From contig DATJSI010000050.1 of NCBI GenBank assembly GCA_035504215.1, forward strand, positions 8,340 to 72,339: 64,000 nucleotides of DNA, in the 5' to 3' direction. This stretch comes from Mycobacteriales bacterium (GTDB taxonomy: Bacteria > Actinomycetota > Actinomycetes > JAFAQI01). The position numbers were made by a program, and so were the translations under genes. This document shows positions 12,893-21,027 of the stretch, one piece after another. How positions within the stretch are numbered: position 1 is the stretch's first letter; each line of letters starts with the position of its first letter. Below the pieces are notes generated by a model. The model saw nothing but the letters and a program-made list of their open reading frames with translations. It was not told the origin of the DNA and searched no databases.

Positions 12893-13196
12893 TCGCCGTT
12901 CTCCTCGTGCGTGCGGATGGTGCGGTTCGTATGTTTTTGCGCCGATATCCCCGACCCACGCGGTCGGGTGTGTCGCACGCTCCGCGCTCCGCCCGCGCCG
13001 ACCGGCGCGAGAATCTGCTCGGAGGGTCCCGACACCCGGCCCCGCACGTTCAGATGCCCGGCGCAATGAACTCCGGGCGCCGTCACCGTGCTGGTCACGA
13101 GCGTGTCGGGTTGCACGACACAGCGTCCGGATCGCTCCAGACACCGCGTGCCACACTAGCCGAGCGCGAACCGCCGGGTCAAAACCTGCCCGTTGG

Positions 13197-13223
13197 GGGT
13201 AGTGGGTCAGTTTGAGCGGGACG
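13197..13223. repeat. left terminal inverted repeat (IR-L) of the insertion
   Basis: GGGTAGTGGGTCAGTTTGAGCGGGACG; its exact reverse complement occurs at 16348-16374. Confidence 0.8.
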
Positions 13224-13262
13224 TTTCTGGCGATGCTTGACCGCTCACGCTAGCCTTGAAGC

Positions 13263-13415
13263 ATGGCCAAGACAGCAGTAGCGGCCGGCGACCCCGGTGA
13301 CTGGTTCGCGCTCATCCTGATCCTAATCTCGCTCGGCATCCTGCCTGGCAAGTGGAAGGGCACCGTATCGGGCGCGGCGACTCTGTACTGGATTTGGAAG
13401 AGGTTCGGCGAGTGA
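13263..13415 (+). CDS. 50-aa hydrophobic peptide with one predicted transmembrane helix (below ORF-track size cutoff)
   Basis: Hand translation MAKTAVAAGDPGDWFALILILISLGILPGKWKGTVSGAATLYWIWKRFGE. The TGA stop overlaps the GTG start of the next ORF (GAGTGA). Located just inside IR-L. Confidence 0.4.
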   Translation: MAKTAVAAGDPGDWFALILILISLGILPGKWKGTVSGAATLYWIWKRFGE

Positions 13416-13645
13416 CGCCGAAGCGTCCCCGTGACCTGAACCAGCTCGCGGCCAGGCTAGTCGAACTAGCCACCGATCCGGACGCCGAGGACACGCCCGA
13501 CACCGGCAAGGACCCAGCTGCGGTTAAGCTCGGACGACGGGGAGGGCTCAAAGGCGGCCGGGCCCGCGCCGACAAGCTCACCGCGGAGCAGCGCAGCGAG
13601 ATCGCCAGGAAGGCCTCCGCCGCTCGGTGGAAACGCGACCGCTAG
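13412..13645 (+). CDS. small basic protein (~77 aa) with C-terminal K/R-rich motif GGLKGGRARADKLTAEQRSEIARKASAARW; putative nucleic-acid-binding
   Basis: The in-frame ORF track starts at 13352. GTG at 13412 is preferred because a GGAAGAGG RBS lies 8 nt upstream and it is coupled to the preceding peptide stop. The C-terminal motif recurs in many small bacterial proteins (recalled from memory). Confidence 0.55.
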   Translation: MTPKRPRDLNQLAARLVELATDPDAEDTPDTGKDPAAVKLGRRGGLKGGRARADKLTAEQRSEIARKASAARWKRDR

Positions 13646-13694
13646 CGCTGGTAGCATCCCACCGATGTAATTCAATCCGGATGGGGGTGCCCGC

Positions 13695-14471
13695 GTGGCC
13701 AGGACCTCATCCGATGACGCGATTGACCTGCCCCTCCGCTATCCGACCTCTCTGATCCACGTTGACGAGAGCGGGTCACGCGCGAGCAGGGAGCAGTTCT
13801 TCGTTGTGGGCGCCGTCAAGGTCCGCGAGTCTGGCCAACTGGCTCGGACCATTCGTGACGTGCGCGACCGCAACAACTTCGAGGGCGAGTTCAGGTTCAG
13901 CACGATCTCGCGAGGGAAGCTGGCCGTCTACTACGACCTGATCGACCAGCTTGAGCAGTCGGACGCCCACTTCGCGGCGTGTGTGGTCGACCGAAGCACT
14001 GGGGCAGATCCCTTCGCGTCCTCCGTGCCGCCATGGCGGATTCACGCTCGGGTAACAGCGCAGCTCCTGCGAGCGTGCATCAATCGACGCGAGGTCGTAT
14101 CGGTGTTGCTCGATAGCATCTCGACCCCAAAGGGTTGCGCGCTTGACGACACAGTGCGCGGGATGGTCAACACCCAACTGGGACGCACTGCCGTCGTGAC
14201 GGCTGCGTGCCTCAACTCCAGGACCAATGATGGCTTGCAGGTGGCCGACCTCGTCGCGAGCGCCATCGCATTCGACCGCCGCAAGGGGTGCCTTACGAAG
14301 GACAAACACCCCAATTCACACAAAGCTAAGGTGGCAGCGCGCCTTGCCACCGCGTTCGGCATTAGCTCGTTCGATGACGTGCACACCGAACGGGTGAACA
14401 TCGCCACCTACCGCCGGCGAGCGCCTGTGCGGCTCGCCACAGTCGAAAAGATTCCGCGCCTGACTGGTTGA
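13695..14471 (+). CDS. DUF3800-family protein
   Basis: 258 aa. N-terminal LIHVDESG and C-terminal GLQVADLVASAI match the conserved DESG...QxADL signature of DUF3800 (recalled from memory). GTG start. A GGGGG purine tract lies upstream. Confidence 0.6.
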   Translation: MARTSSDDAIDLPLRYPTSLIHVDESGSRASREQFFVVGAVKVRESGQLARTIRDVRDRNNFEGEFRFSTISRGKLAVYYDLIDQLEQSDAHFAACVVDRSTGADPFASSVPPWRIHARVTAQLLRACINRREVVSVLLDSISTPKGCALDDTVRGMVNTQLGRTAVVTAACLNSRTNDGLQVADLVASAIAFDRRKGCLTKDKHPNSHKAKVAARLATAFGISSFDDVHTERVNIATYRRRAPVRLATVEKIPRLTG

Positions 14472-14717
14472 GATTTCTCCGATTCGGGCGATACTCTGTA
14501 TGTGCGGCTTGAGCTTCGGGCTCACATCTGCACGTTCGGGCTTGAGCTTCGGGCTCACGGCCCGGAGAACTAGGGCTTGTAACGGCCTCCCACAGACAAC
14601 AACGACGAAGCGTCTCGTCAGAACTGGCGGGGCGCTTCGTCGCGTCTGCGCGCCCCCACGCAACTGCGAACGCCAGGAGGTTGACTTTCCCTAAGCGGTC
14701 AAGCATAATGGTCAGTA

Positions 14718-15583
14718 TGAACAAGCTGAGTCCGGAGAAGCGAGCGCAGGTCATCGGCTGCCTGGTCGAAGGCATGAGCATCCGAGGCACCGTCCGGACC
14801 ACAGGAGTAGCCAAGAACACCATCGTCAAGCTGCTTGTCGACCTCGGCGACGTCTGCTCCTACGCGGCGAACGAACTGCTAGTCGACGTCGAAGCCAAGC
14901 GCGTCCAGTGCGACGAGATCTGGTCCTTTTGCTACTCCAAGCAGAAGAACGTCCCCGAGGACAAGATCGGTGAGTTCGGGTACGGCGACATCTGGACGTG
15001 GACCGCTATCGACGCCGACACGAAGCTCGTCATCAGCTACCTAGTCGGGGACCGTTCCAGCTACTCGGCGCATCGGCTCATGGAGGACGTGTCCTACCGG
15101 GTCACGGGCCGGATGCAGCTCACCACCGACGGGCACAACGCCTACCTGAACGCGGTCGAGGACACGTTCCACGGCGACATCGACTACGCGCAGCTCGTGA
15201 AGATCTACGACGCTCCCAGCGGCCAGGACAACGAGCGTCGCTATTCGCCGGCTGTCTGCACCGGAGCCGACAAGCGCCGGATCAACGGGCACCCGGACGA
15301 GAAGCACATCAGCACCAGCTACGTGGAGCGCCAGAACCTCACTATGCGGATGAGCATGCGCCGGTTCACCCGGCTCACGAACGCGTTCAGCAAGAAGGTG
15401 GAGAACCTCGCCGCCGCCGTGAGCCTGCACTTCGTGTATTACAACTTCGCTCGGCCGCACCAGACGCTCACGAAGGCGAACGGCGGACGCCCGACCACCC
15501 CGGCAATGGCGGCAGGAAAGGCGTCCCGAGTTTGGACACTTGCCGACATCGTGCGCCTTCTGGACTACCAACTGCCGGAGTGA
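14718..15583 (+). CDS. IS1-family (ISMhu11-like group) transposase, single ORF
   Basis: N-terminal HTH (MNKLSPEKRAQVIGCLVEGMSIRGTVRTTGVAKNTI). DDE region (QCDEIWSF, WTAIDADTKL, LTTDGHNAY). C-terminal ERQNLTMRMSMRRFTRLTNAFSKKVENLAAAVSLHFVYYNFARPHQTL, typical of actinobacterial IS1-family transposases. The ORF track starts at 14681. A TTGACT-17-CATAAT promoter suggests a leaderless start at the ATG near 14718. Confidence 0.7.
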
Positions 15584-15699
15584 CCGGCGAGCCTCCACCA
15601 TCCGAACGTGTGTTCGTCGTAACTTCCCAGGCATTGGAGCCCCGGCGCGGCTGCAACCGCCCGGGGCATGGACCCCATCTTGTAAGGAGATGAGGACGT

Positions 15700-15975
15700 A
15701 TGAGTAAAAGGATCGTCGCCGTCCGCAAGAGTCGGTACGGCCACGGCCACCTCACCGAGGCCGGTATCGGCACGGTTCACGGTCGCCCCGCCTACTGGGA
15801 AGGCGTCGACACGGTGCGAGCGAACCTGGCCTCGCAGACCTACTACACGGTGAGTCCGACGTCGGGAGCGGTGGCCTACGTCCATCGGGTCACCTGCGAG
15901 TGCGGCGTGAAGACCATCCAGACCGACGGCGACCGGTGGCGCGACAACAACCTGGACAACCTGCCCACCTACTGA
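15700..15975 (+). CDS. DUF3892-family small protein
   Basis: 91 aa MSKRIVAVRKSRYGHGHLTE...YYTVSP..AYVHRV...TDGDRWRDNNLDNLP, matching DUF3892 hallmarks (recalled). Strong SD AAGGAG 8 nt upstream. AT-rich leader. Confidence 0.55.
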   Translation: MSKRIVAVRKSRYGHGHLTEAGIGTVHGRPAYWEGVDTVRANLASQTYYTVSPTSGAVAYVHRVTCECGVKTIQTDGDRWRDNNLDNLPTY

Positions 15976-16298
15976 TCAAGGTCCGGCACGATGGACAACG
16001 ACTGGAGTCGTGGCATTTCCGGTCGCGGCTTCAGTTCGTCCTCAGCGCGGTCGGGGAAGGCTGCGTATCCCATCGCGACCGCGATGCAGTCCGCGATGAA
16101 CGGCACCACGTGCTCAGCGGTTCCGACGGGCAGCTCGATTGCGATCCTGTCGTCCAGCGCCAGATAGATCTGTCCCCCCGGTTGCGGCGTCGCCGACAGG
16201 TAGGGGACGCGCCGCCCGCGCAGCACGACCGCGTGCGCCCGGAACGGGCCGATGAACTCCAGGTCGCTAAGCGCCGGGAGGTCAGAGTCGACGCTCAT
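15969..16298 (-). CDS. hypothetical protein (109 aa), convergent with and overlapping the DUF3892 gene by 7 nt
   Basis: ORF MSVDSDLPALSDLEFIGPFRAHAVVLRGRR.... An AT-rich promoter-like region (TCATTAT, ATGTAATTC motif) lies immediately upstream, inside IR-R. No recognisable family. Confidence 0.4.
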   Translation of the reverse strand: MSVDSDLPALSDLEFIGPFRAHAVVLRGRRVPYLSATPQPGGQIYLALDDRIAIELPVGTAEHVVPFIADCIAVAMGYAAFPDRAEDELKPRPEMPRLQSLSIVPDLDQ

Positions 16299-16347
16299 CG
16301 GCGCGATAATGACATCAATGTAATTCGATCCTTGGGTCCGACGCGCC

Positions 16348-16374
16348 CGTCCCGCTCAAACTGACCCACTACCC
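16348..16374. repeat. right terminal inverted repeat (IR-R) of the insertion
   Basis: CGTCCCGCTCAAACTGACCCACTACCC, the reverse complement of 13197-13223. The first mismatch is at the outermost flanking base. Confidence 0.8.
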
Positions 16375-16514
16375 GAACCCGCGGCCGGGCCTTGACCGCG
16401 GCGTACGCCGAGCTCGAGCGGCCCGCCGGGCCAGTGGGCGGCAGGTCCCCTAGCCGAGCGCGGCCAGGCCGCCGCTTGAGCCGGTGGTGGTGTGGGCAAC
16501 GACCAGCGTGACGA

Positions 16515-16847
16515 TCACGACCAGCCACACACCACGAGCTCGACCGACCCGAGGGTGATGCCGGCCAGCGCGAGGCCCCGGCCGCGGTCGCCGTTGTGCC
16601 GGATCTGGCGGACCGCGATGATGCCGAACACCAGCCCGAGGACGCCGCCGAGGAACGGCAGGATGCTCAGGGCCACCGCACAGCTGGCGGCGCCGATCGC
16701 GAACCCGTTCATGCTCGGCCGCGCCGGATACCCGTACGGCGGGTAGCCGTAGCCGACCGGGCCGCTGGTGGCCGCCGCATAGACCGGCGGCCGCTGCCAA
16801 CCGGGCGGGGCTGCGTAGGGAGGTTGCGGACCGGGCTCCGGGGTCAC
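16515..16847 (-). CDS. DUF4190-family membrane protein (Pro/Tyr-rich N-terminus, two TM helices)
   Basis: 110 aa with PPYAAPPGWQRPPVYAA...GYGYPPYGYP followed by AIGAASCAVALSILPFLGGVLGLVFGIIAVRQIRHNGDRGRGLALAGITLG. Confidence 0.65.
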   Translation of the reverse strand: MTPEPGPQPPYAAPPGWQRPPVYAAATSGPVGYGYPPYGYPARPSMNGFAIGAASCAVALSILPFLGGVLGLVFGIIAVRQIRHNGDRGRGLALAGITLGSVELVVCGWS

Positions 16848-16956
16848 CCGTTCAGTGTGCGACAGGGCGGCTGGCGCGCGCCGGCCGACCCGTTCGTCAG
16901 GACGACGAACGGGCTGCCCTCGGAGGAGGACAGCCCGTCTCGTCGTGGGTCACGGC

Positions 16957-21027
<4,071 letters not shown>

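Follow-up and report, generated by a model that had tools for sequence, protein, structure and literature searches.

A DUF3800 protein of predicted RNase H-like fold is paired with a twin-hairpin small RNA in the mobile DNA of actinobacteria and their phages

This report concerns a gene for a protein of the DUF3800 family, and the structured small RNA gene that lies just 3' of it, in a stretch of 64,000 nucleotides (nt) from a Mycobacteriales bacterium (assembly GCA_035504215.1, contig DATJSI010000050.1; the whole stretch is 'the window' in what follows, and positions are counted from its first letter). A preliminary description of the protein gene, made from the sequence, had taken it for a metal-dependent hydrolase carried on a transposable element; the small RNA gene, which proves to be its conserved partner, had been overlooked. 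The features of the pair are:

13695-14471, + strand: DUF3800 protein gene; GTG start, 258 amino acids, type 2 RNase H-like fold predicted
residues D24, E25, D140 and D179/D185 of the protein: candidate active site, predicted; N174 replaces the D174 of the subfamily
14468-14495, + strand: sigma-70-like promoter of the small RNA (promoter scan: 2 sites against 0.2 expected)
14468-14473, + strand: -35 box, TTGAGA, overlapping the stop codon TGA (14469-14471) of the protein gene
14490-14495, + strand: -10 box, GATACT, after a 16-nt spacer; alternative TACTCT at 14492-14497
14502-14533, + strand: hairpin module 1; outer stem 14502-14508/14527-14533, inner stem 14511-14515/14519-14523
14535-14566, + strand: second hairpin module, in tandem with the first and 33 nt on from it; outer stem 14535-14541/14560-14566, inner stem 14544-14548/14552-14556
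14573-14588, + strand: variable third hairpin, from the minimum free energy fold; present or absent by locus (3' tails of 64 loci)
14603-14642, + strand: long terminal hairpin, an inverted repeat with 19-nt arms, in the position of a Rho-independent terminator elsewhere

Beginning with the protein, we see a stand-alone domain of 258 residues, with neither extra domains nor a TPR fusion; the same product is present in public gene calls (P0001, 100% identical, 'DUF3800 domain-containing protein [Mycobacteriales bacterium]', from a metagenome-assembled genome). Its placement in DUF3800 is borne out by Pfam family PF12686, matched at 35.1 bits, above the gathering score of 21 (E=2.7e-8), over positions 4-147 of the model's 149, by the phage family phrog_3732 (E=1.1e-24) and by PADLOC family PDC-M04A (E=1.8e-16), which PADLOC lists as a defence candidate. 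Grouped at 50% identity, the members of the subfamily found at E<1e-30 form 113 clusters; the plasmids searched for the cassette hold no homologue.

Conservation was scored over 56 members of this subfamily, at 48-63% identity. The two motifs picked out in the preliminary description, LIHVDESG and GLQVADLVA, occupy residues 20-27 and 180-188, and their key residues hold up on the alignment: D24 and E25 are each present in 55 of the 56 sequences, D185 in all 56, and S26, Q182, A184 and L186 in at least 90%. One letter of the supposedly invariant 'D-E-S-G' does not survive the comparison, the glycine varying among the relatives such that the real motif is D-E-S. Together, D24-E25 and Q182-V-A-D185 correspond to the N-terminal D-E and C-terminal QxxD motifs of PMC7736814. 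Further invariant acidic residues are E65, E133, D140 and D179; D58, D90, D152 and D174 are also conserved acidic positions.

An AlphaFold2 model built from the subfamily alignment (predicted local distance difference test score, pLDDT, 90.9; predicted template modelling score, pTM, 0.87) has the topology of a type 2 RNase H and matches 1eke in a Foldseek search with E=6.6e-6; its top viral structural match is a DUF3800 protein from a siphovirus. In the model, D24/E25 close strand 1, D140 closes strand 4, and D174, D179 and D185 follow strand 5. Reading the mapping from secondary structure, we infer that these are the canonical places of the RNase H carboxylates, in line with the earlier suggestion that they resemble nuclease motifs; the modelled protein is probably a Mg2+-dependent nuclease using D24/E25, D140 and one carboxylate after strand 5. 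It differs from RNases HII, HIII and H2A in lacking their GRG motif (DESGSR, not DEAGRG), and from RNase HII also in having no match to its C-terminal region. The RNase H-like nuclease idea is itself already in print: Mestre 2020 (PMC7736814) modelled retron-linked DUF3800 on RNase H2, Altae-Tran 2023 also has the nuclease idea, and Makarova 2025 describes DUF3800 as 'an RNase H fold nuclease'. In a selective survey of the DUF3800 literature we found no report of a tested activity, in keeping with the preliminary description; a 2026 CASK preprint shows the DUF3800 protein Csx32 only as not phosphorylated.

Moving downstream, a comparison of the DNA that follows the DUF3800 stop codon reveals the same non-coding block in nearly all loci. 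It would encode a small RNA with a total length of about 150 nt and a predicted start at about 14501-14504. The RNA appears to have a promoter of its own; the arrangement, TAnnnT 4-10 nt ahead of the first stem and a TTG-hexamer lying 16-19 nt upstream, is repeated at 28 of 55 loci, at 25 of which, as here, the -35 box and the stop codon overlap. The body of the RNA consists of two tandem hairpin modules, each built to one consensus: an outer stem of about 7 base pairs (bp), a 2-nt 5' bulge, a 5-bp inner stem, a triloop, invariant at its middle C, and, on the 3' side, an internal loop of 3 nt, usually ACA. Module 1 of the window follows this plan, with its 5' bulge, a UCG triloop carrying the invariant middle C, and (A)CA as the 3' internal loop. 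In nearly all loci the two modules keep a constant spacing of 32-35 nt. After the variable third hairpin comes an unpaired A/C-rich stretch (CCCACAGACAACAA, 14589-14602), often CACAAAC across loci, and then the terminal hairpin; in most other loci this last element is a GC-rich terminator stem followed by T-rich sequence. The minimum free energy for positions 14497-14650 is -79.3 kcal/mol (z=-6.1).

The structure is supported by covariation. Twenty-four base pairs were proposed and assessed on two alignments: A2, 45 sequences anchored by hand, and A3, made up of covariance-model matches. Pairing across all 24 amounts to 94.5% in A2, where 19 of them show compensatory double changes; in A3, 93.8% of cells are paired, with compensatory changes in 20 of the 24. 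None of 500 shuffles came up to these figures, and slid controls reached only 20-47% (21-47% for A2). The aligned pairs contain 232 G.U cells against 19 A.C cells, from which it follows that only the modelled strand pairs well, and which point to a transcript as the conserved entity rather than a DNA element; on the same counts we reject an att site or a cruciform as a DNA-level explanation of the hairpins.

A covariance model built from A2 (R1) has a single match in the 64-kb window, at 14497-14571 (76.2 bits; E=3.6e-19). In 496 kb of other loci it finds 63 matches, at most one per locus (63 of 80 loci), each lying just past a DUF3800 stop codon; all 63 adjoin a DUF3800 gene, 61 on the gene's own strand and two on the opposite strand. 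At two loci labelled L020 and L068 and in the phages Dori and Powerball the RNA sits on the other strand and converges with the gene, and such cases identify the RNA as an independent gene rather than a 3' untranslated region. Amongst intact DUF3800 genes with enough downstream sequence, 52 have an R1 match, and the three that do not (L025, L065 and L069) are still followed by RNA that folds as two adjacent bulged hairpins; we found no intact DUF3800 gene without a twin-hairpin RNA at the loci examined. The reverse arrangement does occur, disrupted genes often retaining the RNA: well-scoring RNAs accompany frameshifted or truncated DUF3800 genes at L018, L023, L028, L029 and L030 and at several metagenome loci.

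Searches of Rfam 15 gave no match to the twin-hairpin RNA, whether with positions 12900-17000 at E<=10, with the window and 13 further loci at gathering score, or with two 261-nt queries at E<=10; the sole Rfam matches, BjrC68 and ctRNA, were dismissed as terminator look-alikes. An RNA-first search of viral contigs returned only the known contig with a strict DNA pattern, and mostly coding repeats with a loose one. A 36.9-bit model match on the reverse strand of a further locus (L095, 2807-2881) falls in a coding tandem repeat (…GLRPEGLGQSH…) of a large viral open reading frame (ORF); we discount it as a false positive, which indicates that coding tandem repeats can mimic the twin-hairpin model.

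Comparing the two modules with each other, we see that their inner hairpins are more alike within a locus (similarity 0.913) than between loci (0.733), a pattern of concerted evolution that fits a single binder recognising both. This bears on a view of the RNA as a substrate matured by the DUF3800 protein, or as a regulator of DUF3800 or other genes through base pairing. The conserved internal loops of the bulged hairpins could serve as cleavage sites, and the anatomy (promoter, stem-loops, single-stranded stretch, terminator) is that of a typical bacterial small RNA; identical twin modules evolving in concert are, however, better suited to recognition by a protein, and no complementarity to the DUF3800 mRNA was noticed in passing, no systematic search having been made. 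We consider such a role rather unlikely.

The linkage of gene and RNA can also be read in terms of an RNA-guided or RNA-scaffolded nuclease, in which the RNA would be a stable cofactor, like the omega-RNAs of TnpB and IscB, and its A/C-rich stretch or some other part would direct the enzyme to a nucleic-acid target. The strictness of that linkage, the RNA's promoter, the RNase H-type fold and the semi-conserved, single-stranded CACAAAC-like box ahead of the terminator would all suit such an enzyme. Moreover, the HEARO and IS605-orfB motifs, which come from the same 2017 survey that reported RNAs beside DUF3800 genes, reportedly turned out to be guide RNAs. Against this, the RNA has no freely variable, guide-like segment, the unpaired box being semi-conserved and not diverse; the protein is small (258 amino acids) and devoid of extra domains; and the cassette is not found at transposon ends. 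On balance, guidance of this kind appears unlikely.

Where the cassette travels can be seen from its surroundings. All-against-all clustering of the flanking ORFs from 31 genome loci, the window included, identifies integrases as the sole conserved protein neighbours; a tyrosine integrase lies within 3.5 kb in seven of the 31, at variable distance and in variable orientation. The ORFs directly upstream are mostly spurious or unrelated, with a few XRE-like repressors amongst them. The cassette is also carried by three cultured temperate actinophages, Dori of Mycobacterium smegmatis and Suerte and Powerball of Gordonia (G. rubripertincta), in each of which an integrase gene lies some 1-1.5 kb from the DUF3800 gene and the twin-hairpin RNA occupies an unannotated gap of about 250 nt after it; the RNA is on the strand of the gene in one of the three and on the opposite strand in two. 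In Powerball (Gordonia; L086, 3357-4648) the annotated immunity repressor gene runs with its 3' end 4 bp into the DUF3800 gene, which directly follows it, and in Dori (Mycobacterium; L085, 3357-4717) the unannotated gp48 ends inside the DUF3800 gene in like manner; the product of gp48 begins, as judged by eye, like an XRE-type repressor. Both overlaps suggest, from gene arrangement, that the overlapping genes are co-transcribed in the lysogen. M. smegmatis and Gordonia hosts are genetically tractable, and the presence of the cassette in cultured phages makes the DUF3800 question directly testable.

Transfer RNA genes are often close by as well; at three loci (L009, 6998-7071; L013, 6372-6444; L014, 8804-8876) they stand directly beside the cassette or its integrase, in keeping with islands that have inserted at tRNA genes and carry the cassette at their edge. 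Separately, a Guanidine-III riboswitch scoring above its gathering score (47.4 bits) is present about 3 kb from the cassette of Georgenia wangjunii (L012, 9609-9671, - strand) and is probably unrelated to it.

Within the window, the GC content falls from 0.70 to 0.60-0.65 over approximately 13150-16150, between rpsL and a DUF4190 gene that adjoins rpoC. This dip of about 3 kb suggests, by its composition, a horizontally acquired insert in a region of ribosomal-protein and RNA-polymerase genes; neither an integrase nor direct repeats were seen at its edges. Taken with the prophage lysogeny regions and the integrase-bearing islands, the low-GC insert places the cassette in horizontally acquired DNA. 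The other genes near the pair are:

13263-13415, + strand: hydrophobic 50-amino-acid ORF, overlapping the next small ORF
13352/13412-13645, + strand: basic ORF of 77-97 amino acids, ending 49 bp upstream of the DUF3800 gene
14681-15583, + strand (gene callers: about 14708, 291 amino acids): IS1-family-like transposase gene; DDE_Tnp_IS1, 33.1 bits against a cut-off of 24.1
15700-15975, + strand: DUF3892 gene, inside the low-GC insert, converging on the 109-amino-acid ORF with a 7-bp overlap
15969-16298, - strand: unannotated 109-amino-acid ORF (orf109), inside the low-GC insert

It is two of these neighbours that gave rise to the picture in the preliminary description, in which a metal-dependent hydrolase stands alone as the cargo of a transposable element and acts together with a small, 'nucleic-acid-binding-like' protein encoded upstream. 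The neighbours are certainly there: the transposase gene begins 237 bp downstream of the DUF3800 gene, matches NCBIfam IS1 (E=9.5e-19, below the NCBIfam cut-off) and has a near-consensus promoter (TTGACT, 17 nt, CATAAT, at 14681-14709), and the basic ORF ends close upstream. Yet the transposase, the 97-amino-acid ORF, DUF3892 and orf109 are found beside none of the 84 other homologue loci (tblastn; genomes, metagenomes and phages), and no inverted repeats of an insertion sequence enclose the DUF3800 gene; for these two reasons the transposon-cargo picture is left unsupported. As to the basic ORF, neither Pfam nor NCBIfam has a family that matches it at E<=0.1, so the label given to it is not upheld; a C-terminal GGLKGGRARADKLTAEQRSEIARKASAARW stretch of it matches phrog_2384 (E=8.4e-7). 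We therefore judge the earlier picture highly improbable as a whole; by comparison of loci, both the IS1-like gene and the small ORF upstream appear to be bystanders, and the insert between rpsL and rpoC would hold a mobile cassette in its own right, not a transposon passenger.

What might such a cassette do? Our preferred reading, held tentatively and by analogy, is that of an RNA-controlled nuclease carried by mobile elements and resembling type III toxin-antitoxin or defence systems; we rate it a serious possibility, if short of probable. The cassette would have two parts, a DUF3800 RNase H-like nuclease and an RNA of about 150 nt made from its own promoter. The RNA would bind the protein, perhaps with one hairpin for each protomer of a dimer, and binding would control the nuclease, most plausibly with the RNA acting as a labile inhibitor in the manner of a type III or abortive-infection antitoxin; were the RNA to be lost in a phage attack, or the element itself to disappear, the nuclease would then be set free. 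We propose a labile inhibitor because the RNA is composed of tandem repeats and has its own, often near-consensus promoter; because no intact gene is without the RNA while dead genes retain it; because the cassette sits in prophage lysogeny regions; because DUF3800 is the predicted-nuclease protein of type VII retrons; and because the RNAs paired with DUF3800 are extremely diverse.

Having said this, several points weigh against an RNA-controlled nuclease. Data on toxicity or defence for DUF3800 proteins are not reported in the literature that we surveyed. Two features depart from type III toxin-antitoxin systems: the RNA comes after the gene, under a promoter of its own, and the protein is no RNase of the ToxN/AbiQ type. 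At the level of sequence, the Pfam profile RNase_HII does not match the protein at E<=0.1, a PDB profile search with the protein alignment (A1) gave no genuine match, and hhalign comparison of A1 with three RNase HII sequences, global and local, returned a probability below 1%; sequence profiles thus provide no link to RNase HII, and it is the fold that carries the nuclease assignment. The concerted evolution of the hairpins could be explained by gene conversion instead of a shared binder. Lastly, the copy in the window may itself be decaying: residue 174 is N here and D in 54 of the 56 relatives, residue 127 is A where 55 of the 56 have G, residue 161 is Q where 52 have R, and the terminal hairpin is not followed by a T-run.

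This last point can be taken further, to a view of the present copy as an inactive relic in a degraded island, in which only the conserved RNA functions, or nothing does. At least seven near-invariant residues of the subfamily are altered here (K67R, G127A, L134V, R161Q, D174N, G189S and R230H), departures that may reflect relaxed constraint on this copy, as judged from the alignment. The missing T-run, the IS1-like transposase gene adjoining the 3' end of the small RNA, and the commonness of frameshifted DUF3800 copies in other genomes would all sit well with decay. The ORF is nevertheless of full length and retains every one of D24, E25, E65, D140, D179 and D185, and the RNA scores 76.2 bits against the model with one mismatched pair only; we regard a dead remnant as improbable.

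Returning to the RNA-controlled nuclease, a bolder version would see here a protein-RNA conflict system of a new class: an RNase H-fold nuclease would be checked or targeted by a dedicated tandem-hairpin RNA and would be used for exclusion or addiction by temperate actinophages and islands. We think this version doubtful, though worth stating: if it is true, the logic of conflict systems would explain the other eleven DUF3800-associated RNA motifs as well as the use of DUF3800 in type VII retrons and with Cas12a2/a3 and Cas13. More modestly, should the RNA control the nuclease, a member with an RNase H fold would be added to the RNA-antitoxin or RNA-cofactor systems. In either case, what is gained over the published nuclease idea is a conserved RNA partner and the presence of the pair in cultured actinophages; the actinobacterial subfamily offers an unusually simple pair for study, a 258-amino-acid domain and an RNA of about 150 nt with two identical bulged hairpins.

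Structured RNAs have been on record beside DUF3800 genes since 2017, when Weinberg et al. (PMC5737381) reported eleven unrelated RNA motifs adjoining such genes in either orientation. In that paper's account of them, motifs I-XI are like the present RNA in family and in consisting of a covarying RNA beside the gene on either strand, frequently with a Rho-independent terminator. In the DUF3800 literature of our selective survey, no role has been proposed for these RNAs. Rfam holds at least motifs DUF3800-I and -IX, to neither of which the twin-hairpin RNA is matched. We found no earlier description of it; the distinction extends to the motifs held by Rfam, and it may equal one of the 2017 motifs outside that database.

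DUF3800 again accompanies a structured nucleic acid, or else an effector guided by RNA, in type VII retrons (reverse transcriptase plus DUF3800, the latter being their associated predicted-nuclease protein; PMC7736814), in the TPR-DUF3800 proteins of Cas12a2/a3 and in Csx32 of Cas13 CASK loci. The family thus returns repeatedly in defence settings, as a component of type VII retrons, with Cas12a2/a3, amongst Cas13 accessory genes and in the PADLOC candidates. Here, no reverse transcriptase or cas gene was matched among the neighbouring ORFs scanned with Pfam and NCBIfam.

A further likeness is to the type III toxin-antitoxin systems (ToxIN, CptIN and TenpIN), which also combine a nuclease with an RNA of tandem direct repeats, there of about 33-45 nt, and which likewise reside on mobile elements and have very diverse RNAs; the present RNA has the tandem direct repeats of a type III antitoxin, two of them with a period of 32-35 nt. 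The differences lie in layout and in fold. Type III systems place the RNA before the toxin gene, under a shared promoter and with a terminator between the two, whereas here it comes after the gene, on its 3' side, or is encoded by the other strand, and has a promoter of its own; and where type III toxins have the ToxN/AbiQ fold, the DUF3800 protein has a predicted RNase H fold, with an RNA partner of only two repeats, each a simple bulged hairpin.
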